A DNA stretch of 34,799 nt, taken from the NCBI GenBank assembly GCA_000934665.2, contig JYFJ02005688.1, forward strand, positions 1 through 34,799, written 5' to 3'. Origin of the DNA: Catajapyx aquilonaris (taxonomy: Eukaryota). Every line of letters starts with the position of its first letter. The stretch's first letter is position 1. The notes below the pieces were generated by a model that had not been told where the DNA came from, did no database searches, and saw only the letters and a list, made by a program, of their open reading frames with translations. A program made the position numbers and the translations under genes. Positions 7,953 to 34,799 of the stretch are shown piece after piece.

Positions 7953-10900
7953 TTACACTGCTGTTATGTCTCCCTTGAGCACAGTTGCTGCACGCTTGAC
8001 ATAAAAGATCACTTCAGACAAATGCTTCTTGACGCCTTCCCATCTTTTAGCTTGCTCAGTTGAGTTCAACCTATCCACATTGTGTAAAAGATCCCAGAGA
8101 CCAGCAAAACTGGTTCCTGCATAAGAATCTGAACTACTGGGGGCAAACACAACGTGACTGCCCAGGGAATAAAATTTAGTTAGCTGGGTGACAATTTTAC
8201 AATGCCAATATACAACTCACTTGACATCATTTCTTCCCATTGGTAGTCCCCATGGATTAATAAATGCTCTTTCCAGGAGCATTAACCGGTCATTCACTGC
8301 TCGGACTGCCAGTGGACTAGAAACACAGTACAGAAATAACTTGTGCAATGTCCATTTTATTAGTATTTACTTACTTGCTTTTGTCAACATATGGAAGAAC
8401 ACTGTTTTGAAACTCTATGGCACTGTGTGAAAATTCTTGAATGGCTTCCTCAAAGTCACCTGTGAAAAATTATAATATTAATTTGCATTCCTAGGATTAA
8501 ATGTGATATTTTCTTACCCAAGCTCAATCCCTTTTGTGATAATTTTGGCCCTAAGCCTTCCTTTATGGCATCTAAAGCCCTGCTGAGATATGCTGCATAT
8601 TCAGTTGCATTGAAAGGGAGAATCAGTGAATCTGCAAGGTCACGAGCCATTTCTCCCCAAACCTTAGCCAGGGCCACATGAAGGTGAAACCCATTGTCCA
8701 TCAAATCCTTAACCAAGTGGTAAGTGTCATACAGAGTATGGTACAGAGGGTATGTATCATGGTACTGAAAAGATAATTAAATCATAAGCCATGCAGGAAA
8801 TATGGGATTTATCAGGTAAATTACCTTTGGATCAATAAATCTCACATCTGCTGAGGGAATCCCCAGATTGTGAATAAAACCAACATAGTCACTGCCACTG
8901 CCAATATCTTTGACCCTGCAGGAGACAAAGGCAATACTGACAAGGACTCTGTATCTGTACATTTTTTTGAGGTACCGGTACTTACTCAGGCCTATTTTTT
9001 GTGATATTGTCTGGCATATGATGGAGCCAGGAGTCATAAAGAGTCTTCATCCCATGATCATATTCAAACTTGTTTGGATTCTTAACCTTTTTGGCAGCAT
9101 TAAAGAGAGCTGTGTAGAGCAAGGGCACGGATTCGCCCATAAGAGTCACATTTCCACTCATTGCCATGTCTACATTAATGTATGCAACTGCACGTGCATC
9201 TAAAAGCTTTCTCAGGTCTTCAGTCCATTCCATAGAGCCCACAAGTCCATGCTCTTCAGCTCCCCAGCTGCACAAGACCAGGCTGCGACGTGGCAACCAA
9301 GCTGGAAGAATAGTGACATATTAACTCATCTTAATGGAAACCATGTGTTTCATAATTTAGCTCACATCTGCATCAGCAGAAATATCATGTATGCCCACAA
9401 GTCATGTTGGCCCCCTGCAGGGGAGAAAATGGAGAGAGGAAAGTGAATAAGGGATAGTTGCTTAGGGAAATGCATGTTCAATAATTCTTTTGATGACTAA
9501 AATTGGTGGGCATAGGATTAGGAACTTAACACAGGATTGTCCATGACATTTCAACCAACATGAACATGAGCTAAATTCTGAAACATGATGTACAGTACAC
9601 AGTCATTTTCACCATGATCTTTTTTGAGCTGGCCAAACACACGTCCCAATTCCATCAGTAATGCTGTGCCACTTGACGGGTCCACTCCACCAAATGTCCA
9701 AGCATCTCTGTGGTTCCCCAAAATCACATATCGATCTGTAAGGCAATGTATTTTGTGGGAGTGTCATATTGAGACCTTAAAAGCATTCCTGTGTTTAACC
9801 TGATTCAACACGCCCATGCATAACAGCAATGACATTATAAGTGACCCGTTGTTCATTAGTCGTTTGAATTTTCATTCGAATGGCTTGTCTGCTAGGACCA
9901 ATTTCATACGAGCAGTTGAGTCCTCCTGTCCAGTTTGTTGGGGATGGCTTGGTCCCTGCCATGGTTCTAAAAACAAATAAATCAATTTAACTGCACTGTA
10001 ACCATTATGAAGTCAGATTCTACCAACCTCAACAATTCCTGTGCATCTTGATATCCAATGGGTTGAACTGGAATTTTGGGAAGTAAGGCATCCTTCTCTG
10101 CAATTCTGTAAGCAGTTTCTGAAAATTGGGGAGTCAGTTTTCTCCTAATTGGAACAGACCTCAGATCTTAACTTACTTATGGATGGAAAGTGAGGTGTCA
10201 AGGGATCTCCCTCAGTTAGTTTGACTGTTCCACTTTGTGCGCCCAAAGGTGGTAGATATACAGTATCTGGGTACACCCCTTCTTTTCCAGGCGGGCCAAA
10301 GTCTTTTGGATCCATAAAAAATATTACTCCTTTTGCACCATATTGTTCAGCAAACTTGACCTGTGATCAAAATATTTCAGTTTCCATATTAACAGAGCCA
10401 AAATCATCACTTACAATGTTGGCGCGAAATATCTGTCCTAATCGAGCCAATACCACATTTCCTTTGACACTGACGCCATTGTCGTTTAAATACTGAAAGT
10501 CTTCTTCCCGGCCGTAATTTACATACACCATATATGCCTGGAAAGCTCACATCAGTAAATACGTCTTCAAAAGTGTAAAATAGAAAGCATTCACTCTAAT
10601 TGTGGCCGCAATTTACGAGGAAATCGCCATTATAGTCACGGTGTATGTGTTCATACGCGCCACTGACTGCAGCATGTCACGATAACGCCGATTCCCACAT
10701 AAATCCACGCCTTTACACGTTACCTCCACTATTCCGTGTCCAGAATACGCATTAAATGTCTGTATTTTGAATTTTTCTTCCCCTGGATACAGAGCTGGCT
10801 GAGAGTCGTTAATTCTGTAGACTATATCCCCTTGTTCAGAGAGGATAAATATCTGTGGAAGAACTACCTCACCTAGAGTTTCCGATCGTGGTAATCAATA

Positions 10901-13038
10901 CATTTAATCGTACCTCATTTGGAGTACTCTCGTTAGGGTAGGACAGTAGCACATTGTAAGGCACTATCTGGACTTGATCAAATCCCGCCCGTTTGAAATG
11001 GCTTTCTAGCCATTGGGCTTGCTCCAAATCTTCAGGTGTTCCCGCCAAATGCGGCTGACTTGTCAGATTTCTGCAAGAATATCGGCATGTGAAACCTTCA
11101 GGCCAAGACGTGCACTACAGGCGTTAATGGTGCCTCGAAACTAGGCTATCGGTTAAAGACACGTCAAAAATTAAGTAGCCTAGCTTTCTAGGGTCTACAA
11201 CCTCTAGGATTCAGTTTGTCTCCTTAGCAACACTACAGAAACAAATCGATACACGAAGAATCCCTGAGGGATGACACCTGTTGAATAGTACTGTGCAAAT
11301 AACATGTGCTATAAAGTAGAGACGTTTGGCAGAGATACACATGTAAGATTTACACCCACTGTAAGTATCCAGAAATGGATTCAGCATCCACTCGGGAAAA
11401 GAGGTCAGCATCGCTGACCGCTAAAGGAGTTGTTGTTACGAACGCGTGCGGCACACGCTCCGGAATCATGGCATAGTGTCCCAACAGCATCCCTGTTCGT
11501 AGTCATACGAGAAGGAAAAAAGCACACAAATAATATCCAATCAATCAGGAGTCTATTTACAGCTACGGCGCGGCGCACCAATATTCTAGCGTGGGTGGAG
11601 AAGGAGAGAAGTATTCACACACGATTTATTGACCTTTTTGAGAAACCTAGGAAGCTATAATTATGTCCACATTCTCACTGTATATTCCAGTTGTGGTGCA
11701 GTACCGATTGCCTTGCACCAACATAATTATGACGCACGCCACTGGATGCTATTCACTGTATAAGCTAACTAATCAGACATGTTTTCCCGTCCTTCACGCA
11801 TGATATGAGAGATAATCATAAGCAACAAACGGCGTCATTAGCAATACGACATAATAGACTTATTACGGCTCCATGCTGGGAATAATGCACGCAATGATTG
11901 GTCCTCTTGAGGGCTACAAGTTGGGCGGCTAGGGAATAGTGCAGTATTTACACCGCAACGGGCCAAGGCTACCGGAGACGAAGAGCTGTAAATAATATCT
12001 CCGTTCTTTTCCTAGCTATGTCCATTATATGGTCAGGTTTAATGCGGAAACGGTAGTTGAATCAATTGGAACGACGCCGACGCGGCAATTGTATATGTAA
12101 ATCACGGAAATTATGAGCAATGCACAATACAATAGGGATGATGGGACGTTGCGGAAAAACAAACCAGTAAATAATACCCAGCATAATCCTGCTAATAATT
12201 CCGTACTCTACTGCAACTGGTTTGCACATGCACGCATTTCATACCGGTATCGTCTTCATGTGCATGTTATTGTCGCATGTTCGAATTTTTACTACGTACT
12301 AAATCATAAGATAACCATTTTTGCTGCAGTGACTTTCTATAGTATCCTCGTTGTCAATATCTGTAACGAAACAGAAAATACTAAGAAAAAAAAAAAAACC
12401 TCCACATGACATAATTATATTCGTCCTTACGTCGGATTCATGTAGCAATCCCATAATATACGCAGGTCACAGGGGTTATGCAAATTGAAAGTCCCCATAA
12501 TGCAATTCAAAGTCAATTAAGAAGTTGTAGTTCATACATTTTGACATAATATTACACAAACTCCGGATTCCCAGGCTAGACTCAGAGGATTGGGTCATAA
12601 TATCTAATCAAACTAATATTATTTTGCAGGGCTGATATTTTAGTAGTAATGTGCGGAAAGAAATGTCTTTAAAATCGTCTCTCCTCCTCCTCAATTCTGA
12701 GAAAAAGTTTTGAGCTTCCCGAAAAGTAGCTGCAAAATTAACGCAAATATTTGCATGCATTAACAACTGGAAAAACACTTCCTAATCTTATCACATATAG
12801 CTGGTGTCACCCCCTGACCGCCACTGATGTGGCGCGAATTTTGAACGACTCATGCAAGGGACATTGTCCTCCCAGTCAGGTAAAGACCACCAATAAAAGA
12901 AATGAAAACATACGTACCGACAATGATACCAATTATGAAGGCCGCCAAAACAGCTGAAATTAGAACCTTCCTGGGCACGACTCCCATTGGCTGTCCAAAT
13001 TCGCGACCATCCTCGTGAATATTCAGAGCTCGGTTCAT
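7953..13038 (-). CDS. Paralogue 2, alternative isoform B (~755 aa) with a different first exon and TM anchor
   Basis: Exon 12918-13038 ([41 protein letters not shown], donor G|GTACGT) and exon 11360-11492 ([13 protein letters not shown]...[14 protein letters not shown], donor CA|GTGGGT) join in phase to shared exon 10914-11070. Total 2268 nt, in frame. Confidence 0.75.
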
Positions 13039-16000
13039 GTCCGAGTAGTACGGGACTGTCGCGCGCTGAGCAAGTAAGCACCTTGGAGCACAGCTGCGAC
13101 CACCTCGTTTTTGTGAGCAATGGCAAATGTGGAGGACATATGTTTTACGGCGTGACTGTGTTCTAAGTATCGACCAGGTGTATACGAGGCCGGGCGTGCC
13201 ATTGGTCGCTACCCCAGCCGAGCAGTTGAGGATTTTGTAGTGCTTTACGAGACCCTCCAAAGACCGATGTTTACGATTCATTACTCAGAGGACAAGCTAT
13301 AGGGCATATCCCTTCAGATGAAACGGAATCCATGAAACCCTCATAATGTAACACGACGCTGGGGGTTGTCGCCATTATCATGTTACTTTGACTAATGTCG
13401 AGGCTTGTTTGCCTGGCTGTCCCGGTGAAGATGCTCTACTAGTCTACATAATTGAATGGATCGGATGCTACAGTATAGATGGCGACGAAAATCGAAAAAA
13501 TTGAGCTTATATCGGAAATGTTCAGAGTACACGCCATCTTTCCCTGTAAAAAAGTAATGAAACAAACGTTCAACAGCAAGTTAGATCTGCAACGGTGAAA
13601 ATCTCGCGCACAATCGCCTCTGTTGCCATATCATCAATTGCGGAGACTACTACTGGAAAGTCTATTAAACAGGCGCTTGTATTATGTGTCAAACAAGTTT
13701 TTCGGACAAAAGTATCCACCTGACACTGTACAGCAGTGGTTCTCAACATGTGGTACGCCACGCGTGCGACTTTCAGGGGGTAGTACGCGAGCAGCGCTGA
13801 AGGGAAAAACAACAGAGAAATAAAATGATGTGGGAAATTTCGAGGCGACTTGGATTATTATATATATATATATATATATAATAATCCAAGTCGCCTCGAT
13901 TATTATATATATATATATATAATAATCCAAGTCGCCTCGAAATTTCCCGCATCATTTTATTTCTCTGTTGTTTTTCCCTTCANTATATATATATATTAAT
14001 AACCGCGGAATGTGGCCGCAGAATGAGGTAGGGGCGTTCGCGTGTGTGGTTAAGGCCTTTTTTTCGGGTGCATTTTAGCTTTCTCTCTGCACAAACGATG
14101 TGCTTTTCGGCACAAACGGGCACGAACGAAGCACAAAGATTGCCTTGATCGAAAAACTGATCGGAAAACTGTCATTCTTTCCGTTTTTAGAAAGTTTTGT
14201 GGAGGAAAATGAACTTGAGCTTCATTGTTCTGTTGTCAACGACATAAAAGAGCATTGCCTGGGATTAATAACCGACTTTGGCGAATATTTTCCTGATGAT
14301 TTAACCAGCGAGTTCTGGATTCGAGACCCTTTCTGTGCCGTGGACGACGCCAGTTTACCGGACTCCTTATCGACGACAGAAAAAGAATAAATTATTGAAC
14401 TATCATGTGATGACACCCTCAAGTCCAGTTTTAAAAAGACATCTTTGACCGACTTTTGGCTGCAGCGATTGAACGAGTTTCCTCATATCGCTAATCACTG
14501 CATGAAGTTCGTCATACGGTATTACGGTACCTTTCTCGACAACATATCTATGCTGTGAGCGTGGTTTTTCATCCATGGTGTACCTAAAGAATAAGTACCG
14601 CAACAGACTATATGTTTGGAGCCGGACCTCCGCTTGAAAATTTCAACTGGACATCCAGACATAAGGAAACTGTGTCGAGACATGCAAGCATAGCCTTCGC
14701 ACTGAAATACTGATGATTATCTCAACTTCAGAACTAGGAATCAGGTATTTTTTATCATACCATTTTGTGTTTTGGTTTATTAATGATTTCATGTCCGATG
14801 TTTGTTTTTTTTAATTAAGCCTTCAATAAAAATATCAATTCTGCATTCTTTCGACAATATAATATTGTTATTTTCATTTGATATTTTCAACTGATCATAT
14901 CGATTTTAAATAAGATATATTGTTTGGAAAAACTTGGGATTCTTTAAATATAACTTATTAAAACTGCCCAACTAAAAAAATCCACCAGGTAGTCAAAAAT
15001 GTTAAAACCTATTATTTTTGAACATGTTATCGTGGGGGTACATTCGACTTTTAGTCATGGTCAAGGGGTACAATGTGGGAAAAGGTTGAGAACCACTGCT
15101 GTACAGTGTAATAATAATAATAATAATGGATACCCCGTGATAGGCCTTGGGCCTCTTAGGGGATCATCTTTTCGTGAACCGTCTTTAATCATTGCCTGCG
15201 TGTGATGGATTTTGAATAGTGGGAGGAAACGGGAGAACCCCGAGAAAACCCACGCGAACACGGAGAGAACCCATCGAAACTCTATCCACATAAGCATCCT
15301 TTGCGCGACCCGGGGATCGAACTCGGGACCTTAGAGGTGGAAGGCTGTGGCACTAACCACTCCGCCACCGTGTCGCCCCACTGCTGTACAGTGTACACTG
15401 AAACTTGCAGCACTCTACCAAGGTGAAGCTTATTCTTTCCCCTACTCAACTAGAGTGACGATTGCATAGTGCAAGAATACGTTTATCCTACCTTTTTAAA
15501 TAGTACAAAACTTACGGTACGTGTTTTGTATATTTTTAAATTCCTTACATGGTAGCAGCAGAATTAGTCATTCGAATTACGCGTACCTTTACCTGGAAAG
15601 GATAATTGCGCCAAACACACGCGAAACCTTGTCGACGTTTCCGTGTCGCCGTATAGGTTTGCATTGCCTATATAATTGGTACGTGGAAAATAATTCAATA
15701 TGTACGGAAATATTTGTGGTACATTTATTTTTGCAGAATGGCGAAAGACTATACGTGTTAAGTTGTATGTACACTCCGACGGGCAACAAAAAAGAAATGT
15801 CACTTTTATACTGGTTTCTCATCTTTCTAATTTTCTTTCCCGTGAGTAATTCATTGTTACTACTCTTAGCATTCAAAATCCTATCTCGTAATGAGCACAG
15901 CCAAAATTAATTACACTTAAAAATATATTCCTACCCTTCAGTCAAGTAATTACTGCCGCGAGAGGAGGTTGACGTCTCTCCAGGCAGTAGTCATTTCAAT

Positions 16001-19000
16001 TAATATGATTTCCCACTAGATACATAATGACAAGTGATTACTTTGCGTTTCTTTTGCTTGCTTTTGCTTGCTCTGGTGTTTGAAGTTACTGTGTATGTAC
16101 TGTACTGTGTACAAACTGTGCTCAAACCCCGAAAATGGCCATTGGGCGAAAAAACCGTCCAGCAGATTGAGGAATGCCCCATGTCAAACCATCCATTCCG
16201 CGGAATGGTCGCTTTAAAACCATGCATTCCGTGGAGTGGTCGTTTTTAAAACAGCCCGACCCCGAAATGCTCTTTTTTAAAAGACCAGGACGCTTTCTGG
16301 ACTTGTCAGGACGCGAATTTCGTGTCGTGATGGCTGGTTTAGAAAACGCAGATGACATGTTGTGGCAGTTTCTTGTTTCCCACTATATTCCCAGTATATT
16401 TACTAGTACTTAAATTTTTTTGTTACTGCATTTGTAATGGAGAACTCTTTGGTAAAAAAATTATATCTCCTGTTTGAAGGGTACTTAAGCATATGTGAAC
16501 ACCGTCATATGTGAAGACCTATACAGGGTGTATCTGAACTCAGTGCCCCGACGTATATGACTGCCTTCCTAGCTATATTACTGCCTTCCTAGCCTTCCTA
16601 GCCACCAGTCATATGTCTGGGCAGCCTCATTACGGAGATAATTGGCCGCAAACATGTAGTACAAAATATCCTGTCGGTTAGGCCACCCATCGAACCCTCC
16701 CCCAGTCAGAAGGCTCTGGAAGGTCTGGGGGTGGGACTTTGTTGGTTTGTTGCCCACAGGTGGTAAGGCCTCTTTGGCTAGTTACACCAGAAAATTCGAT
16801 TTAAAAGTCAGAAGGAGCGATTAGGCAAAAATCGCTAAAGAGTGTATCTCAGTAATGAGGCTGCACAGACATATGACTCCTACACTTAAATCGATCCTCT
16901 GGTGGCTAGGAAGGCAGTCATATACGTCGGGGCACTGAGTTCAGATACACCCTGTATAATACCTTCCTCATCCACTTCGCGCTTGTAAGGTGGGGTAAAT
17001 CTAAGAAAAATCACAAAATGTAACAACCCAATTTGACACTCTCAATCTACTGATGGGCACAAAAAATCAGGTGCAAACTTTGGCTTGAGAAATGGCACAC
17101 ATAGCAGCATGTAGGCTATGCAGTAAATTGTGTACACTTTTGTCAGCATGCATGGGAATTTCAGGGACTTAGAATACATGACCCACCCAACAGAATGCCA
17201 TTGACTAACAAAAAATAATTAATAGCCCACCCTGTTGCCTGCTTTATTCCATCAAATACACCCTCCTATTTGTCCTGTACGAATTAGGTCAGTGAGATCC
17301 TGTCATGTGCACGAGTTTATATCCAATGTTTAAATGGTAGCCCTAAGGCAAACAGTTTCATATTTCTATACTTTTACCATGGTGCTGCTGTGGCATCATT
17401 CCCATCTGTTGAAGCTCTACCTCAAACAGAAATCATTTACACATTGTGTATCTCTGCCAAGTGGCAATGCAGGGGTCCAATTTCTTGCATGAGCTACCCA
17501 GCCATGTACAGTACACTACACTGCCACACATACTCACTTCAGGAATAGCGAAATGGACTTGGCATCAACTCCATCCATAATCCACTGTGGAACTTTGGGA
17601 TTGGCTTCTTGTACCAGGAGGGTAGGAAGTTTCATATCCTCATTCCATTGGGTCAAGAAGAGTGCATAACCAGCAAGAAAGCCCAGGGTCACAGAAACAG
17701 ACCCAACACATATTAGTGGCAACCATTGCAATCTATTACTCTGCTTGCGAGGCCTAGTAAATGTGGTAGGGAACAAAATTGATATCAGGGGGTTGACATA
17801 AATCAAAATACAATGCTGTCTGAACAGTATATTATTAAATGTTCACAAAAATGTAAGCCACTATCTCAGTCACCTCCCAATTTCAGAAAGGCACTGTGTG
17901 GAATGTTGCACATGACGTACAGTCTGTTAAACCAAAGAACGATATGGCGTCACATTCAGCCGGCCTCCACCTGCTTCCCTCCCATCATGTCTCTGAATCG
18001 CTCTGCAAGCCTACTACTGTTCATGCTCAGAAAACATGGCTGGTGTGACGCCACATCGTTCTTTGATTTAACAGACTGTATATGATGTGCCAACAAGAGG
18101 GGGGGGGGNGGGGAGAGGGAGAGAGAGAGAAAGGACAATGGGAGTTTTGCATGTAAGCCATTGGCCAGCAATGAAAAGATAATGAAATAATGTTTCAAAA
18201 GTCAGCTTAATTAGTATAAGTGGGAATCCCGCAAATGCTTGCCTTCCTCATTCAAGTTGGCAACGTGGCTGAATTTCATGCAGTCTATATCACCTTTTGT
18301 CAAGGTGGCAGCTTGGTTCAGAATAGGGAGGTGAGAATTTGAGGTATGGTACCAGTATTTCTATAAATACCTGATAAATACAGACCTAGACTGCATTTTT
18401 AAACACAGGGTAAGTTACAACAATTATTGTAGCCCACACAGCTGCAGCCTGCTGTCAATGATGTTATACATTGGTTACATCAGGTCACATGATACTTGAT
18501 GAGCTGAGCTTCCAAGCAAGACTGTGACTTTATTTAAACGTGGCCTTCACACACTTTGTATTTTGAAGAGGGCAGCATTTAATGGAAACATTTCAACATC
18601 TCTTGAAAAGTGTACATTATTATTGATGCAGTGAAACCTGTATGCATCTGAATTCCTAAAAGTTGTTTCAATTAACAAATATCTATTACAGAGGTCAATA
18701 CTAAATGTAGGACAAGAATTTAAGGCAAATTAGCATATCTCTGAATTACTGACCTAGAACAGTCATTCAGGGCCTGTTCACAGTCCTTTGGGTGATATGG
18801 TCAAGTCTACTGAAAGCACATTAGGAATTCAAGTTACTAAATTTCCATCAAGTGGAGTTAGTAGCTGGAATTAGGAACATGCCTGCACAGTAAAGAAGAA
18901 GTCAGCTGGAATACCCCTCGGCCAATTTTCTTCTTCACTGCACTGATGTATACCTAATTCCAACTACTAACTCATGTCCATGAAAAGAAAGTGTCACAAA

Positions 19001-20971
19001 CAATTTCAAGCAAGTCAGGAGGTATGTCAGTCTTGTCGGGCATGAATAATAATCTGCTAATGTGCTCCCCCCCCCCCCCNCCCCCCAAATGGCCCCCAAA
19101 TACCAAATGTGCAGAAAGTGCGGGCCCAAGCTGTAATTCAGTGTGGGATACATGAGAAAGCATCAGCATATATCTGACATGTGGGTCCCCAAGTTATGGC
19201 TGACAATAATACAGTAATATTTCCCATGCAGTCAAGGTTTTCATTACTGATGAATCAAAAAATACTCTCTAATGCAGTAGCATTAAACTAATTCCCTTAC
19301 ATCTAACAACAATGCAAAGTTATATCTTGATGCTGGGACAACAAAATTTTTCCACAGCCGACGTGTTTCCATTACTACCAGGGTCTGCTACAGGCACGTT
19401 TCACTTCATTAATTTAAAAAATACTTGTGCGCTAGTCATAGTCATGAACATCTAAAGCCAATAAAAGTTAACTACTAACTCATTTACATAAATTATGTAC
19501 GGTAATTTGAGTTGTGAAATTATTTATTTTCTGAAAGTCCTTGGTATCAAACCAACCTACATACTTTGAAATGATTTGCAAGGCGGTCTCCTCACTAATA
19601 CGTGGGTCATTGGAAAATTATTGGCAACACTGCTGTAATTTTCGTATCAGTATGGGTACACACTTGAACATTTCACATTCCATAGAGGTAATCCTCAGCC
19701 ATTTTTATGCCATTTTTTCCATATCCATGCTGGAAAGCTTCGAATGCTGTCAGATTCCGTTTTTTGTCGAGGCATCAAGCTGAGACCACCCTAAGACATG
19801 CTTCCCTCTTACAGAAATGAAAGCCATCTAAGGGTTCCTTCATTTTTGTAGTTGATTGTAGTTACATGTACTCATGTCAGATGAATAGGGAGGATGTTCC
19901 AACAGCTCCCATTCCCATTTCTGAAAAAAAAATCCGAACAGCGATGGCCACATGACAGCAAGGGTTGTCATGGAAGACAATGGGTCCCCTTTGCAACAAA
20001 TCCTTCCTCTTAAGGCGAATTTCTGGGCAGAGATGATGTTTGTAATTATGGTATTGATGCTGCTTTCCAATTACCATTGCCAATTCCATGCAGGTCCATA
20101 TCCAACAGAGTTGTCACAGCTACGACATGGGTCGGGTCTGTTGCAGTACGGCAGGGGGCCTTTTTTAAAAGCTTGTACGAACCTCGCAATGGCACAATAC
20201 GGGAGGCAGAGTCATGACACATCTGCACAATAACTTTATGACGCTGTCTGGCAGATTTTCCATGTGAAACAGAGATCTGATGAAGCAGGGATGTCTTAGG
20301 GCGCTCACGTAAATGGGAACACTTTGAACAGGCACTGCTCCGCACATACTCCTGCGACTGCGTCGCAAATGGTACAGTAGGGTGCCCCAGGGCTGACTCT
20401 AAAAGTACCCCCGCGAGCATAAAGATGGAGACGGCAGGCCCTTTTTTGACCTTTCTTTATCCGACTCAAATTAATGAACTCTTTTGGGACCAAGTTAGCT
20501 GCATCAGGCGTGTGTTCGTGTATTTATGACAGTATATTTGATACCATAATAGCTGCAATTGGCAGAGCAGCCTGCCGAAGGTGAGGGCCTGCCGTCTCCA
20601 TCTTTATGCTCGCGGATGTACCTATCTGCATTCGATCCTGGCAGCCTGGGGTGCCCAGTGGTAACAGTGTTGCCAATAATTATCAGACAACCCTTGTATA
20701 TAAGTAGTACTTTGCAGACTATAAATCTTTGCAGATTGTGTTACTATTCTGTAAAAATGGCCTACCTATGCTTCATATGTGCCAGCAAACTGTCAAAAGC
20801 ATCTTCCTCCTCCTCATCTGAAGTGTGGTCAGCCCCATGAAGAGCTGCAAGGGTCTCCTGGCTGTTCGTGAGCATCATGAGTGGCATAGATGACAGCCTG
20901 TCAGAATCCACAAATGTTGGCTCCCTTGATCGTTGTCTTGCACTTCGGGGCCTTGCGTAGTTCTCTGTCAT
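7953..20971 (-). CDS. M28B NAALADase / GCPII-like type II membrane metallopeptidase, paralogue 2, isoform A (~811 aa)
   Basis: Exons on -: 20766-20971, 17538-17753 (TM), 10914-11070, 10724-10852, 10415-10537, 10177-10360, 10028-10118, 9800-9966, 9613-9735, 8986-9301, 8825-8915, 8518-8764, 8375-8459, 8221-8316, 7953-8157. All introns are GT-AG and the total of 2436 nt is in frame. Motifs: [71 protein letters not shown]. An AG at 20977-20978 suggests a further upstream exon, so the ATG is less certain than the rest. Confidence 0.9.
13734..15098 (+). mobile_element. Internally deleted hAT (Buster/Charlie-type) transposon with a decayed transposase C-terminus
   Basis: TIRs CAGTGGTTCTCAAC / GTTGAGAACCACTG and 8-bp TSD CTGTACAG (13726-13733, 15099-15106). 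14100-14704 encodes [39 protein letters not shown] and EPDLRLKIS...MQA*PSH with stops and frameshifts. Confidence 0.92.
15111..15377 (-). mobile_element. tRNA-derived SINE with V-domain (V-SINE-like), (ATT)n tail
   Basis: Minus strand: A box TGGCGGAGTGG, B box GAGTTCGATCCC, V-domain-like GTGTTCGCGTGGGTTTTCTCGGGGTTCTCCCGTTTCCTCCCA. 18-bp TSD CCACTGCTGTACAGTGTA at 15093-15110 and 15378-15395. Confidence 0.9.
16524..16954. mobile_element. Tc1/mariner-type MITE
   Basis: ~50-bp perfect TIRs beginning CAGGGTGTATCTGAACTCAGTGCCCCGACG, flanked by TA. Confidence 0.92.
17904..18095. mobile_element. Short fold-back MITE
   Basis: ACAGTCTGTTAAACCAAAGAACGATATGGCGTCACA (17919-17954) is inverted at 18044-18079 with 2 mismatches. 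Confidence 0.7.
19601..20696 (-). mobile_element. Decayed, internally deleted mariner transposon
   Basis: Imperfect TIRs sharing AATTATTGGCAACACT, flanked by TA. Minus-strand remnants of the N-terminal HTH ([11 protein letters not shown]...[13 protein letters not shown]) and catalytic domain ([24 protein letters not shown], cf. HPPYSPDLAPxDY). Confidence 0.85.
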
Positions 20972-22407: not shown

Positions 22408-22732
22408 GGGGGAGGCGGAGTGGTGCTGCGGTAACGTATGCACCCACGGATGTTAAGGTCCCGGGTTCGATCCCAGCCCGGGGACACCCCCTTCATCTCG
22501 TGCAGAATTCATTGGGTCACCTCTGGCTTCGTCTCGGGTGGTATTTCCAACAGACTAAACCACCCGGGGGAGTTCACTAAAAATGGCCACATAGAGACAT
22601 TGCACTGCACCTTGCGCATCCCCTCCTGTCATCCTGCCCGTGGGCCCGGGCGTTACATATAAAGGTTCCGATGTATGAGTATAAAATAAAGGTCCGTGCT
22701 ATATACCTCAGATGAGGTCAAGCACTACCCGG

Positions 22733-22795
<63 letters not shown>
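22408..22795 (+). mobile_element. tRNA-derived SINE with (ATT)n tail
   Basis: A-box-like TGGTGCTGCGG, B box GGTTCGATCCC, (ATT)~21 tail, 15-bp TSD ATATAATGAGTTTGG at 22393-22407 and 22796-22810. Confidence 0.92.
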
Positions 22796-22800
<5 letters not shown>

Positions 22801-27832: not shown

Positions 27833-28403
27833 GTATAGACCTTCGGTCACAAATGGAGCTGGTTCAGTGCAATTGTTGGTACCATAAATTCCTAATAGTG
27901 CAATTGTAGGGGTTATGTGCCCCTCTGTACATAGGGAACTTCCCAACACAGTATTTGTGAGCATTTATTGCCCCTTTCCCTTTTCCATGTCTCGAGTGGT
28001 TGCATTTTCAGGGTGAGTGAATTAGGCCATGTTTGTTATATGTGTTGCCATATGTGTTGAATAAAACTGGTGCGCATGAATTTTTGTAGCTGACTGCATA
28101 ATCTGATACATCATCATTTTAGCACTCAAGGTCCTACGTTCAGGTTGAAGCAGCTGATTCCCGTTTTCTTCCTAGTTCTTACAACACGCCTGCCATCTCC
28201 CCATGTTTTTGCCCAACATAATTCATAGATGTAGCTATTGTAAGACATGATGGTTTTTACTAACTGATGCCTTCAGTTGCTACATCCTAGTTCTTCACTA
28301 CTTTTAGTGATGTGTAGACAAAATGCTGAGTAAAAGCTGGGGTGAAAGGCTATACTTTTCCCATTACTGACATGGTGAGTACAATACTTCTCAATTATTT
28401 CAG

Positions 28404-31400
28404 GTCAAGAAGAGCAAGGAGAGGGTGAATCGTAAGAAGGAAGAACTGGAACTCCGACGAATGAGCCAGGAGCTTGTGGACAAGGCCAATGAGCAGGTTG
28501 ATCCAATGGCCGAATTGACAGCCTTCAGACAGTTCACGAATGGCCGCATGCAAGTTAATATGCAGTGCAGTAAAATTGGGGCTCTTGATGAACCTACAAA
28601 GGAGTGGGTTTTTGACCTGACCAAACGCAACATGCAATACCTGTGAGAGCACTTCAGATATTTTGCTCAATTTCATAGTCTGGAGATCATAAGATTGCAT
28701 GCCTAAATTGTCCCTCATTTGGTGATATGGGGAGGATATCTACTGGGTACAGTGCTGAACATTAATTTGGTCGTACTGCTAGTGACAGAAGTGCACATCG
28801 AAGTGATCAAGTGCGAGCCATGCGAGTAAGAAATGGTAGGCCTAGGGTGACGTCACCAGCTGGGGGCAATGGAGAAAAGGGTTTGTCCCCAGCCGGTGAC
28901 ATCACCCAAGGACCATTTATTATTCACACGGCTCTCACGCCATCACTTCGTGTGCACATCTGCCACATCAGAAAATGTTGCTAGCAGTATGATGGAATGA
29001 ATGTCCAGCACTGTACCAGGTGCAATGAATATGATGTGATGCAATAAATTCAATACAGTCGTAGGACTACTACCTGCTTGACCGTGACTCTGACCTCTGA
29101 ATGCAGCATATTTGACAGTCTTGGCATTTCAGATTTAGAAAAGCCAAACCAGGAGTGAAAAATTATGGGAACTTTTTGGGGGGTGGGTCAGAGACATTGT
29201 CTACCCTTAGCCAAAACAATATCACGAAAGCTAAGAGTTGCTTTACTACATAAGCAAAATATCTATGCAATTATTGATAAGCGTGGGAATACCGTATTAC
29301 CTCTCATAAAGCGGCATGCCAGTGTAGTCGGGGTTGACCAGTTTTAGAAATGACTGATCTGGTGGCTATTCTGGCATTCCGGTGTAAGGGGAGGTATGCC
29401 GGTATAAGGCGAGGTTTTCGCATAAGTTACATTATCCTTTCTGAACTTGACATATTTGCCTGAAAATCAAAATTCACGTAGGCACATTTTCGAAATGTAT
29501 TGTTTTCAATTGCAGTGCCTGGCAATAATCTATATTTAAACAGTATGTTGGAGCAGGGGGTTCCCCTGTCAAAGCAGGCTGACGATGGGATTGGTCACAC
29601 AATCTACATATTTTATATGCACTGTTCAACAGAACTTGCATATTCTCACAGCCTGTACACTCGCCCATTTTCATTATAACATTGTTTTAGTATGGTACCA
29701 GAAGCATTCAAAAAATTTTGGCAATAAGGATCAAAATTACGGAAATCTACCTCAGTTATTGCAGCATGCCAGCCACCCCGGGTTATACTCGCAGGGTTCC
29801 CACACTGTCGGGAAACTCCTAAGAATGTCGGGAATTCGTATTTGCTTATTCCCGACCTTGAAAAAGTCGGGATTTCAAGGAAAATGACAAAATGTCGGGA
29901 AAATGTTGGGAAAGTGCAAAAATATTCAGAAAACCAAAGAATGGATGGACCTTATAGGTACTGAGTTCATGGATTTTCTATCACCACCCCACCACCAAAA
30001 TGCCCCACCCCCACTTCCCAACAAGCTTAATCCTCAAAAGGGATTGGAAGCTAAAGGGGAGTTCACACTAGCTGACGGGAGCATACGAAAAGAACGATCT
30101 GAAAGAGTGGACCAATCAGAGCCCACTTGAGGATGACGAAAAGTGAAAGGGATTACGAAACGGAAAAATCGGGAGAAATCAACTTTTGACGGACACGGAA
30201 TACAAAATACGTAGGCTTACGGACCTATCCACCAATGGAAGAGCCAGGAAAGCGGTAGGGGTGTGGCGAGCGAAAGTGAAAGGGAAAGCCGGCAGCGCCT
30301 CTGGCGGGGACAGGACGAAGGACATCAGTCGGGAGTGGAGACCCAGGGGGAGCGGGCCTCGGGAGATGGGAGAAGAGAAGGGTATGATACCGGTCCGAAG
30401 AGAGGGAGAGCCCGAGGGAGATCCGGCTTCCTCCCCGAGAATTCAAGCACAGCGCATGCGCTGCGGGATACGGAGGCATAAACCCACGCCACTCGCTTTT
30501 GTGTCTGAACACCTTTCCCCTCTTTCCGTTTGTTCCGTCATACCGTTCCGTTCGTTTCGTATGCTACCGTCAGCTAGTGTGAACCAGCCTTAACCCTTAT
30601 GAGGATGAAGAATTTTGGTGGTGGNACCGGAAAAACCCAGGAACTCAGTCGCAACCCAGGCGGGATTGTTCAAAAAAATGTTTCGCTAAAATGTTGTGGG
30701 AAGTCTTTCAGCATGATACGAAGGTTAACTTGTCGCCATTTTAAATTTTGATAATATGAACTGTTCAAAAAATAAAGCAAAAATAACATTCTGCCGCCAT
30801 TTTTCCAAGATGGGTGCTGTAATAGGTAGTGTAAAACAGGCGAAAACTATTCTTCCTCTGGGTGAGATCAATATTGTAAGAAACAAGTCAATTGGTTGGG
30901 GTTAGTCCGTTTCATGGGGATGGGTGAAATTCAATTGTAATTAAAAATATTCCAGACTTGGGGTCGGGAAGAATTAGGCGACTCCAAGTCTCGAATATTT
31001 TTAATTGCAATCGAATTTCACCCGTGGCAGCAGTGGCGTATGCAGGGGGGGGAAGGGGGCCCAGGCAGGTCGCACCCCCCCCCCCCCCCCNCCCCCCCCC
31101 CCCCCCCCAAGAGGGGGCTGCACGAAATGTTTGAAATAGCATTAAAATTACTAATTCATGATTTTTTTTTGAAAAAGATCTACCAATTTCATCAAATACA
31201 CACCCATTCAAATCTCCAACATTCACCTAAGCTTGTGTGACCTTAACTCAAAAAATTTCCTCCCCGCCCTTTACTGCTTGTTCGCCTAGTGCTTATGAAA
31301 TGGGCCCCCACCTGAAATTTTTCTGCCTACGCAGCCTGCCTTATTGTTGAATATTTTAATGGGGGGCGGGGGATGTACAAAACTTAAACGAAAATTCACC

Positions 31401-34274
31401 TAGGCTTGTGTGACCTTGAAGCTTGGACCTCCAAAAATTCGCCTGCCACGCGCAATTTTTTGCTCCTCTCATTGGCCCTACCACTACGCTGGCTTTTGGA
31501 CCTTGTCTCGTGTCCGGTTTTATTAATGCGGTAGCTTAGGCTCTGGAAGAGACTGTATTCTTCCTTAATTTGCCTTCTACAATCCAGCTACTGAATAGGG
31601 CTAAAACGGGCTATAAGTACTTATTTACACCCGCTGTATCGATTTTATCGATATTTTTGACCGATATATCGGTATATCAAGATCGTACGATTAATGATGA
31701 TTTTTTACGTTTTTCAATTTGAAATTAGTTAGCGAAATTTCAGGGAGCGGATATTAAAACTGGGCGAAAATACTCAGGCCATTTTAGCGGAAACAGTAGC
31801 CCATGTGTTGGGGAAAAGGGCGGGGAATTACGATAAAATGGTCGGGAAAACCTGGACACTATACGATCTTATTGACTAGTGTTTTCAAGTCTCGTCCCCC
31901 AAGTCCCAAAGAAAGCGAATTTTTTGCAGATACTTGCAAAAACGCGAAAAACCACCCGTCTTATTAGGGTTAAAAACTGAGTTTCACTTTTTCATGTTAT
32001 GCTATTAGGAACAACTACCAATAAAAATTATTCTGCCACATGGCAAAATCAATCCTGGAAGACAGCCTTTTATCTGTATTCATTTATCCTAATTGCCTGT
32101 GACCCATTCCGTAATTTTGCTAGCAGTTCTACTGAATGGAGGGGTGAAGATGTGTGTAAATACCTTTCTTGTGAACAGCAATCATTTCAGAATATGTAAT
32201 CCCGGAGAGGGAAAGAATCAATATTATTTATACGTGGGTTGTTTCATAAGTCATGGCGAATATCTTTTTATTCAAAAACGGAAACACATACAGAGATGAC
32301 CTTTGCTGAGTTTTGAAGATCCGGTGATTACAGTATGATCTGGCATATAGATGTCGCCCATATTGCGTGAGGAAACAAAGGGGGAATGTGACCACACCAT
32401 CGCCCTAAGACGGCCCAAGCTGATGCTCTTGGAGCTGTTGGACGTTGCATGCTGGAGACTCGGCGATGGACAACACGGGAGCTTGATTTCGAGTGTGGGA
32501 CAAGTCAGAGCAGTATGCTCTCTGAAAGACTGAAAGACTAAAAGGTCTCAGGAAGTTGGCATCCTCACTGGTTCCTCGCCATCTCTTTGAGGTGCAAAAG
32601 TGCCACCATTTTGTCCTCCCTTGGAACTCTTATCGCATTGAGGGCGATGGTCTTTTAAAACTGTTTGTGGCAATGGATGACATGACTCAGGTCATGGTGC
32701 TCTGACTTGTCCCACACTAGAAAGCAAGCTCCTGTGTTGTCTATCTCCGAGTGTCCCGCACGCAGCGTCCAACAGCTCCAAGAGCGACAGGCTCTGGCCG
32801 TCGTAGGGCGATGGTGCGGTGAGGGAGTCACTATCCCCTATTGTTTTCCTGCCCCCCTTGCGATATGGGCGACATCTATATGGTAGATGAAATTGTAATC
32901 GCTAGAGATTCAAAACTCAGCGAAGGTCATCTCTGTAAGTGTTACCATTTATATCGAAAGAACCTGCCACATGGCACCAGGAAAAACAAAAGAAGAGCCT
33001 TTATAGTTGTGTTTGGACCACTCAGAAGTGTTGCAGTGATGTGTTTGGGTGGAATGTTCCCCCCCACCCTACTGATAGATACTGTTCAGTTAGCAGTACC
33101 AATGCGAACACTGGTACTGCTAACTTAGTAGTATCTAGCAGTGGGACTGAAATGCCACCCAATGAGGATGTTGCTAAACTCAGCAGCTGTCAGCACTGCT
33201 GAGCTCGCTGATTGGACGATCTTCACTGAGTTTAACAACGTTTTTGCTGCCGAGTTCTGCTATTCCAAGATGGCCGCCATTTGCATACTCCACGGCCGAG
33301 GAGTGTTGTATATATATGCAGGTCTGGAAAGTAGCCCCCTTATCGCGTGAATCTCCAGCGTCCCACCCACCAGCTTCTACGCCACAGTACATGGAGCAAC
33401 ACCCCTCACTGCAACGAAAATTATTACTATTAATTGAGAACAGAGGGGGGAATGAACCTGAATGAATGGACCATTCCTACTAGATTTGAATTGGCGGTTT
33501 GGGAGTATTGGTTTGTCTCATTCCCCCACCAGGTTTGCTGTATGTGGTCCGGCATAGAGCACTAAAAAACGGGACAAAAGCGCCACAAACCCAGCGATTC
33601 GGCACGCTACCTAACTACTGATGAGCCTCTCCTTGCCTCTCGAAAGTCACAGGGGTCGGAGGGGGAAGTCTATGTGAAACTTTGTGAGACTTTTACCAGA
33701 AGTTAAACTAAAAATATACTTAAAGTTTATTATTATTCGGATTAAACCATATTTAAAGCAGCATACAGTATGTACAGTAGTTCATTAAAAACCTGTGAGC
33801 TCATTTTTACGGCACCGAGACCTTTTGTGGATTATCTGTGTTTTCTGATTATACAGGCACAACTCGTGCATTCATTAGCGTGGATAATCAGGAGTACAGT
33901 GTAAGTCCAGGCAATTATCAGACTATCGCAGTAATTTGCTGGCGAGCTCTACTGACTCGGACAGAAAGGATTATATTGAAGTCCTGTGTAATTTGACTGA
34001 GGTATTGTGATCTGTCTTAATGTCTAAATTTTCTAATGCTTGACATTGGTGAAATACAGAATGATAAGTTTATATACTTTTAAAACTTTGACTTACTGAA
34101 CCATTTACATTGCAGGTACCGCCTGTGCAGGTGGGGATGGGACGATGCGTTCAAGAAGCAGGAACTTATGGATGACACGGCATGGTACCTCATCGCAAAG
34201 AAACCAAATGGGAAGCCTCTTGCTTTCTCCCATTTTCGATTTGATATGGACTTTGGAGTCGAGGTTCTGTACTG
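28404..34274 (+). CDS. NAA40: N-alpha-acetyltransferase 40 (NatD, histone H4/H2A N-terminal acetyltransferase), two internal exons; start exon unresolved, 3' exons beyond the window
   Basis: Exon 28404-28642 (VKKSKERVNRKKEELELRRMSQELVDKANEQVDPMAELTAFRQF...EWVFDLTKRNMQYL) and exon 34116-34274 (YRLCRWGWDDAFKKQELMDDTAWYLIAKKPNGKPLAFSHFRFDMDFGVEVLYC) match human NAA40 motifs WAFDLTKTNMQ, WGW, AWYLIA and AFSHFRFD..VLYC. The phase-2 junction is consistent. Confidence 0.92.
28750..29013. mobile_element. Fold-back MITE (TA-flanked) in an NAA40 intron
   Basis: CAGTGCTGAACATT / AATGTCCAGCACTG, TA on both sides, imperfect palindromy throughout. Confidence 0.75.
30055..30590. mobile_element. PIF/Harbinger-type MITE
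   Basis: TIRs AGGGGAGTTCACACTAGCTGACGG / CCGTCAGCTAGTGTGAACCAGCCT, flanked by TAA at 30052-30054 and 30591-30593. Confidence 0.85.
30594..31969. mobile_element. piggyBac-like non-autonomous element (contains assembly Ns and a nested GC-rich MITE-like piece at ~31031-31338)
   Basis: TTAA|CCCTTATGAG ... CTTATTAGGG|TTAA with imperfect TIRs. The N at 30625 makes the pairing of the two ends uncertain. Confidence 0.5.
32344..32882. mobile_element. Fold-back MITE with ~170-bp inverted arms
   Basis: CATATAGATGTCGCCCATAT / ATATGGGCGACATCTATATG, plus internal inverted blocks such as GCTCTTGGAGCTGTTGGACG / CGTCCAACAGCTCCAAGAGC. Confidence 0.85.
33400..33627 (+). mobile_element. Possible decayed Penelope-like element 3' end / pseudo-LTR
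   Basis: Frameshifted RKLLLLIE...MNLN..GPFLLDLNW resembles the end of a Penelope GIY-YIG domain. It is followed by CTGATGAG (33618), the first half of a hammerhead core. Confidence 0.3.
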
Positions 34275-34799
34275 GTTAGTACCGAAATACCCATATTCTC
34301 TAGCATAATTATACACATAGCTCCCTGAGAGTCATGTGAGAGTGCCGAAAGGGCTTCTTCTGAGATTGATTTTGTTGTGAGGCATGATATATATTTTTTT
34401 GAAGTTGTTCCTAATAATCTTAGATGAAAAACTGAAACTCAGTTTTTAAACATGGGGTGTGTTTTCTGAGTAGTGAAAACGTGGATTTTTAAAGTTAAGA
34501 ATATATTTGCAATCGAATCAGTTGTTTTGAAAACCACTAACAAGGGAACCTCTCGAAGTGTCACTCAAAGTTAAAGGTGATTTTTTTTTTTTCGGGTTCC
34601 TTATCAGCTAGAAGGACAACACCCTTCTGGAGAAATCCTCGATCTCAAGCGTTTTCGAGATACAGGGGTCAAAAGGTCAAGAATGGACCACTTTATGAAG
34701 GCCCTGAGGAAGCTATCATTAGTGCTATCGGCAAGATTTTTGGGATCTAGAGGTTTTTTGGGATGGGGAATACAGTGGCATAACCAAAAATCATGAATT

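Follow-up and report, generated by a model that had tools for sequence, protein, structure and literature searches.

Two candidate type II N-terminal modules upstream of one GCPII/NAALADase-type peptidase body in Catajapyx aquilonaris

Here, we describe a GCPII/NAALADase-type peptidase gene of Catajapyx aquilonaris in which two candidate N-terminal modules, each encoding its own cytoplasmic tail and membrane anchor, lie upstream of one ectodomain-coding body. The gene is on the minus strand of a 34,799-nucleotide stretch (NCBI GenBank assembly GCA_000934665.2, contig JYFJ02005688.1, positions 1 to 34,799 of the forward strand), the whole of which is called the window below. Judged from its sequence, the locus is one intact gene of this type, predicted to be catalytically competent, and modules A and B are each a genuine type II N-terminus of GCPII kind, with nothing missing. 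Module A (20971-17538), the distal one, is the long-tailed N-terminus of an old arthropod type; module B (13038-11360), the proximal one, is the ordinary N-terminus of the family, with a short tail, span, stalk, and first helix. We give a probability of about 50% to the reading that two promoters yield two type II isoforms on one ectodomain. For that reading, we infer the two promoters, the joins actually made, mutually exclusive use in vivo, and a difference in trafficking.

Results

The common part of the gene was modelled by aligning a relative (P0001; relatives are cited below by such numbers) to the window and then fixing the splice sites. It runs from 11070 to 7953 on the minus strand in 13 exons (671 residues), open to the stop codon, with all splice sites canonical (AG/GT). 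Exon 3 (10914..11070, minus strand; acceptor ...cttgcag) is the first common exon and takes either module in frame, and its acceptor stands at the 98.8th percentile among 770 AG sites. Common exons 4-15 (7953..10852, minus strand) encode the PA, M28 catalytic, and TFR-like dimerisation domains and the stop codon. Single exons searched against Pfam matched Peptidase_M28 (E 3.1e-8), TFR_dimer (E 6.8e-10), and PA (E 0.0013; 19.2 bits, under its 23.9-bit cut-off). The domain order PA, Peptidase_M28, TFR-like dimerisation is that of GCPII/NAALADase (M28B), and the body aligns with family proteins over ~665 residues. Aligned with the vertebrate GCPII-like P0054, the body keeps all of the metal-ligand and Glu-Glu motifs, including SWGAEEHG and YPLYH, which we take to hold two zinc ions and the catalytic glutamate. 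Exon 3 matches residues 21-71 of human GCPII chain 1z8l_A (E 1.2e-9); because that construct starts 20 residues ahead of the match, the last part of each module corresponds to sequence of the ectodomain construct. The DNA of the window reads as animal, with GT-AG splicing and long introns (6.5 kb and 3.0 kb here).

Module A consists of two exons. A1 (20766..20971, minus strand, 206 nt) opens with an ATG, encodes a 68-codon acidic cytoplasmic tail, and ends 2 nt into a codon at the donor TAG/gtaggc. A2 (17538..17753, minus strand, 216 nt; acceptor ...tttactag, donor GAA/gtgagt), which also ends 2 nt into a codon, encodes the basic stop PRKQSNR, the membrane span, the stalk, and the first ectodomain helix. 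Module B is likewise made of two exons, of which B1 (12918..13038, minus strand, 121 nt) opens with an ATG, encodes a tail of 22 residues followed by PRK and the opening 17 residues of the span, and ends 1 nt into a codon at the donor TCG/gtacgt. B2 (11360..11492, minus strand, 133 nt; acceptor ...cgaacag, donor ACA/gtgggt), ending 2 nt into a codon, encodes the remainder of the span (MLLGHYAMI), the stalk, and the first ectodomain helix. The span of module B is rebuilt exactly across the B1-B2 join and ends in the family-type pattern G-x-L-L-G-[HR]-[YF].

Modules A (A1+A2) and B (B1+B2) comprise 141 and 85 aa, respectively, and together with exon 3 they form open, in-frame stretches of 579 nt and 411 nt. 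Two sets of 5' exons, each carrying a separate ATG, can thus be joined in frame to one common exon, as is expected of alternative N-termini. A join of A2 to B2 is frameshifted and meets a stop after 28 codons, so a productive combination of both modules is impossible. The best 19-residue hydropathy window averages 1.92 in module A and 2.89 in module B, with basic residues on the N-side of the span, and both modules therefore have the features of N-terminal signal anchors (type II), as judged by hydropathy only. An initial annotation of the window had described the two modules as type II N-termini that both join exon 3 in frame and cannot be combined with each other; on re-check its coordinates, phases, and peptides were all correct, and the ATG, basic residues, span, and canonical splice sites were confirmed for both modules. 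Its further remark, that the open reading frame (ORF) track misses exon 11360-11492, needs correcting, as a plain ORF list with a 40-aa cut-off shows the B2 frame as 11350-11502.

In the proposed mechanism, a promoter upstream of A1 would give transcripts running A1-A2-exon 3 and onward, with B2 skipped, and a promoter upstream of B1 would give transcripts running B1-B2-exon 3 and onward. The same dimeric zinc-peptidase ectodomain would then be shown on two different tails, membrane spans, and stalks, and the two anchor forms would differ in sorting, endocytosis, or partners. The A2 donor stands at the 99.0th percentile among 780 GT sites. The splice sites of B2 are the weakest of the gene (acceptor score -2.4, donor score 1.9) on a crude position weight matrix (PWM) built from 12 donors and 13 acceptors. 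Strong sites at the donor of A2 and the acceptor of exon 3, together with weak ones around B2, fit transcripts from an upstream promoter that skip B2. The same strand offers the two modules a single body downstream of A2, in the 17.5 kb up to the window end, which also favours this reading.

Scored by codon usage, all four module exons stay inside the leave-one-out interval of the body exons (-0.12 to 0.29 per codon) and above the noncoding null (about -0.21). The null reached the observed score in 0/198 cases for A1 (score, 0.117), 9.9% for A2, 4.9% for B1, and 1.5% for B2 (score, 0.113). Among 33,827 stop-free 14-mers drawn from the six frames of the whole window, the end of B2 outscored every other non-self match to the final 14 codons of A2 (score, 30; runner-up, 19; background, -13.5 +/- 7.7), and a GT in the same phase directly follows the match. 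The hydrophobic run of B1 (mean Kyte-Doolittle value of 2.69 over 17 residues) ranked second of 1,681 stop-free 17-codon stretches ending before an in-phase GT on both strands, and the sole stretch above it was a poly-Ile reading of a microsatellite.

Relatives were gathered with a HMMER search using exon 10 against 1.84 billion representatives, which gave 1,595 family members (E <= 0.001); the best 150 were used, and the closest exon 10 match among them had 58% identity. A word-indexed protein search with the exon 10 frame gave 1 match among 86 candidates (50% identity), and the same search with B2 gave 9 candidates, none of which scored; the species and its near kin are thus absent from that protein collection. 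None of the four module exons matched a Pfam family, and the PDB had no match for B2. Metagenome contigs queried with exon 10 yielded 8 loci, none of them close relatives and none with module-like sequence (tblastn with modules A and B gave E values of at least 0.9).

Residues 24-141 of module A align with the N-terminus of P0087 across the A1-A2 join (E 8e-8 in the 151-protein set) and more weakly with P0067 and P0020, and tblastn with P0087 matches the window at 17713-17537, in the region of A2. When a profile of these A-type N-termini was run against 5.8 billion proteins, six entries came up, namely P0067, two from Centruroides (XP_023243081.1 and a C. vittatus entry), P0087, Strigamia maritima T1J8L1 (P0181), and P0182, the last of which matched solely via the ectodomain part of the query. 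Module A scored 103 against P0087, 85 against P0181, and 62 against P0180; it has the tail and anchor of the long-tailed arthropod NAALADase-like lineage. Where it differs from these relatives at conserved positions, the exchanges are mostly conservative (L/F, E/D, V/L, and R/K). Residues 6-49 of module B align with Ixodes scapularis NAALAD2 (P0027) across the B1-B2 join at 43% identity, with Lottia P0008 as the next-best match. In a pairwise table of N-termini, the first class comprised window A, P0087, Strigamia, and Centruroides, and the second comprised window B, Ixodes, Nilaparvata, and Lottia.

The significance of these matches was assessed by shuffling tail, span, and stalk separately, 200 times, against 81 N-termini. 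The best score of module A was 103 (shuffle maximum, 66) and that of module B was 80 (shuffle maximum, 62), and neither was reached by any shuffle (0/200 for each). Each module thus has homologues at the N-termini of relatives, the coding conservation that the initial annotation had named as a check. The tail of A alone was borderline (58 against Strigamia P0181; shuffle maximum, 56; 0/200). Several relatives come from short intron-free contigs (P0087, 789 aa on 3,096 nt; P0166, 742 aa on 2,483 nt; the P0067 cluster on 2.3-4.3 kb); these contigs, with their uninterrupted frames of 742-789 residues, are taken to be transcripts, in which case tail, span, and body are joined in mRNA for both module types in those relatives.

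That module B is a chance pattern within an intron is very unlikely in the light of these tests. Modules A and B are weakly alike overall, with a local score of 33 that 64/2000 shuffles reach, which speaks for chance; the ranking of the B2 end among the 14-mers, the hydrophobic ranking of B1, the N-terminus shuffle test, and codon usage all speak against chance. Taken with their open frames, ATGs, splice sites, exon-like codon usage, and conservative substitutions, both modules look alive.

Two stretches flanking B1 were recorded. The frame of B1 is open for 81 codons 5' of its ATG (13039-13284, minus strand), with an extra in-frame ATG at 13281 and out-of-frame ATGs upstream of B1 at 13202 and 13139; Pfam held no family for the 144-aa frame around B1, and the upstream open frame may be 5' untranslated region, a longer tail, or chance. 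On the other side (12850-12917, minus strand), if the B1 donor is unused, the frame continues through 22 mostly hydrophobic residues to a stop, and further in-phase GTs lie downstream of the donor at 12891 and 12888.

The body was compared with those of its relatives. By BLASTP, it is 44-45% identical to its best full-length matches among the best 150 (Haliotis, the ostracod Darwinula, Lottia, and a sturgeon-type protein), and it is 47% identical to Darwinula over 649-650 columns of the tree alignment. Trees place it in a group with Palaemon, a shrimp, and Darwinula, at a support of 96 (FastTree) and of 83-94 (quick runs of IQ-TREE). The A-type lineage has ectodomains without the Glu-Glu pair; the body in the window has SWGAEEHG, and the gene as a whole is for this reason not placed in that lineage. 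The scorpion proteins group with Ixodes in the body tree (support, 90-92), and P0087 and Strigamia, which have long branches, shift position across body trees. B-tailed proteins (Ixodes and Nilaparvata) and A-tailed proteins (scorpion and P0087) stand within one neighbouring clade, a mixture that is expected from an ancestor with both modules.

We suggest, tentatively, that the arrangement may predate the divergence of the arthropod classes: a single NAALADase ectodomain would have had alternative long acidic-tailed A and short canonical B modules, which in chelicerates and myriapods were later parcelled out to separate genes, with the A copy losing catalysis and becoming receptor-like. Such a history would explain the mix of A- and B-tailed proteins in one body clade, and we hold it to be possible, if on the unlikely side.

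Several observations weigh against the use of both modules by one gene. The Glu-Glu pair is lost in 5/5 A-tailed relatives examined (P0087, Strigamia P0181, P0020, P0180, and P0067), the region reading SWSAGAYG in P0087, SWDSVHDN in Strigamia, and SWSASLYG in three scorpion-type sequences, and the A tail in those relatives is thus joined to a different, probably inactive, ectodomain. The pair is kept in B-tailed Ixodes, as in the body of the window, and it is also lost in Nilaparvata P0130, which has a B-like short N-terminus. A tree constrained to monophyly of the A-tailed proteins was not rejected and was slightly better (log likelihood, lnL, +2.4; p-AU 0.52 in the approximately unbiased test), so module A may mark a separate old paralogue. 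The weak splice sites of B2, on the same crude PWM, make efficient B1-B2 splicing less certain. The tail of B alone was not significant, its score being reached by 193/200 shuffles, and the signal of module B thus comes from tail and span together. Finally, the named RefSeq entries of Ixodes and Centruroides among these relatives carry no isoform labels.

The Glu-Glu-less NAALADase-like proteins of the centipede, the scorpions, P0087, and Nilaparvata look, from their motifs, like a catalytically dead arthropod branch. Some of the long-tailed ones (P0087, P0181, P0020, P0180, and P0067) were also seen to be without further ligand motifs; the sixth protein of the branch is Nilaparvata P0130. Module A may accordingly be either the mark of an old separate paralogue or a part of an ancestor that had both modules, with later sorting by lineage.

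If A marks a paralogue, module A could be the orphaned 5' remnant of a catalytically dead A-type gene whose body was lost, in which case the gene would use B only and A transcripts would be rare or nonproductive. The company of A tails and Glu-Glu-less bodies in all five relatives and the unrejected monophyly of A-tailed proteins would follow from this, and no A-type body was found in the window: tblastn of the window with P0087, P0181, P0180, P0027, P0012, and P0024 gave no second body on the minus strand, where a single body lies downstream of A2 across the 17.5 kb to the window end. Paralogues share intron phases, so the in-frame fit of A2 to exon 3 would come free, and a convergent third paralogue at 133-1249 shows that the family is clustered here. 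A decaying remnant sits poorly, however, with two exons that are both open and keep their ATG and canonical splice sites, with the strong A2 donor, with the exon-like codon usage of A1 that none of the 198 null cases reached, and with differences from relatives that are mostly conservative at conserved positions; nor did tblastn (E <= 1) bring up any degraded body exons in the 4.5 kb that separate A2 from B1. We consider this explanation unlikely.

Module A could also be part of a distinct A-type gene that has its other exons beyond the window, with the B gene nested in a very long intron or with a rearrangement or assembly error between them. This would again account for the Glu-Glu-less body that accompanies the A tail in relatives, and the local introns are indeed long and hold inverted repeats. 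The intron required would nonetheless exceed 17.5 kb. It would have to hold an entire paralogue on the same strand, equipped with a strong acceptor at exon 3 and a 3' end of its own, and also the 3' end of the convergent paralogue, and capture of A2 by exon 3 would be expected. We regard it as distinctly unlikely.

The opposite case, in which the gene starts at A1 only and the original N-terminus survives as module B but is no longer used, draws on B2 having the weakest acceptor and donor of the gene and on the tail of B lacking a significant match of its own. Against it stand B1 and B2, both open, with a span rebuilt exactly over their join down to the family ending, the significant likeness of the module to tick and mollusc N-termini, and the exon-like codon usage of B2. 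Moreover, in the proteins with the bodies most similar to that of the window, e.g., Lottia P0008, it is the B type that the N-termini come nearest to. We give this case little credence, and the reading with two promoters and two anchored isoforms is the one we prefer.

As to the origin of the two modules, the initial annotation had proposed an old exon duplication in this gene, a claim that the comparison of the modules does not bear out. The likeness between A and B is marginal, as given above, and the intron of A lies just before the basic stop, that of B within the membrane span. No DNA repeat linking A and B was found, the introns holding only inverted repeats like those of miniature inverted-repeat transposable elements (MITEs). 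Each module is far nearer to the N-termini of other arthropod classes (B also to that of a mollusc) than to the other module. Common to A, B, and the whole family are a span ending in G-x-L-x-G-[RHY]-[YF] and a helix before an N-L-T/PH-x-AG motif. The weak likeness and the different intron places point to two ancient N-terminal types rather than a local exon duplication. The arrangement therefore probably did not arise by exon duplication inside the gene; a very ancient split, or the placing of 5' exons of a neighbouring A-type paralogue upstream of a B-type gene, is more likely. The MITE-like inverted repeats lie in introns between and around the modules, at 16520-16958, 13798-13982, 17908-18090, and 20405-20621; their arms measure 38-79 nt and show 89-100% complementarity.

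The remainder of the window contains few other features of note. The last exons of the third NAALADase-family gene lie on the plus strand at 133-1249 (pieces at ~133-282, 891-977, and 1037-1246), convergent with the gene described here, with a weak TFR_dimer match (E 0.0017). This paralogue was considered as a source of an A-type body and rejected, its best match being P0182 (summed 101 bits), which is Glu-Glu-bearing and has a signal-like N-terminus. Long trinucleotide microsatellites at ~1540-1620 and 22720-22800 read as poly-Asn, poly-Ile, or poly-Leu. Protein-like open frames at 28371-28646 and 34084-34308 (plus strand), upstream of the peptidase gene, had no Pfam match. Five single N occur in the window (X near 13,95x-14,0xx, 18,1xx, 19,0xx, and 31,0xx), none of them in the exons described.

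Discussion

Alternative-promoter N-terminal isoforms of type II membrane peptidases are well known, and usually the cytoplasmic tail alone changes. The gene in the window resembles GCPII/NAALADase (MEROPS M28B; human structures, e.g., 1z8l) in its type II topology, its PA, M28, and TFR-like domains, and its metal-ligand and Glu-Glu motifs, and it is unlike them in having two alternative candidate N-terminal modules upstream of one body.

The nearest parallel in gene layout is in DPP6/DPP10, type II dipeptidyl-peptidase-like proteins in which, according to the accessible parts of the sources, a common core follows alternative first exons and N-terminal variants arise by alternative mRNA initiation (PMC3973911, PMC3366920). 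As far as the available text of one of these goes, the alternative exons encode the cytoplasmic N-terminus only, the span being encoded by the common core (PMC3973911). Both systems have one ectodomain-coding core behind several alternative 5' exons. On that partial description, each module in the window differs in being made of two exons and in replacing the span, stalk, and first ectodomain helix too, and B2, as an internal exon of module B, must be skipped by A transcripts. In ECE-1, the portion of the source at hand describes isoforms that differ solely in the N-terminal region and come from alternative promoters, and it mentions no difference in the span (PMC2133129); ECE-1 belongs to an unrelated peptidase family, and module use at the locus in the window is predicted. 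Within the same protein family as the gene in the window, isoforms of Caenorhabditis elegans gcp-2.1 differ in their intracellular part, gcp-2.1b being described, in the excerpt available, as lacking the intracellular part present in isoform a (PMC10794815). On that account, one gcp-2.1 isoform is merely without the tail, in contrast to a swap of tail, anchor, and stalk at the locus described here.

The long-tailed arthropod NAALADase-like proteins (T1J8L1, Centruroides, P0087, and P0067) have the tail, span, and helix in common with module A. Their ectodomains are without the Glu-Glu pair, in contrast to the window's body, which retains it and clusters with proteins of crustaceans. A literature search found no paper on alternative anchors or alternative first exons in GCPII-type genes and none on long-tailed Glu-Glu-less arthropod NAALADase-like proteins, with most subscription journals outside its reach; on NAALADL2 splicing, it gave nothing relevant.

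GCPII/PSMA is an enzyme family of medical interest. With one module only in use, the locus amounts to an ordinary gene that has a paralogue remnant next to it. Should both joins be used, the unusual feature of the locus is that tail, span, stalk, and first ectodomain helix would be exchanged together. The gene would then show one catalytic domain sent to different membranes or partners, and it would be a possible intermediate toward the NAALADase-like proteins of centipedes and scorpions that are long-tailed and catalytically dead.

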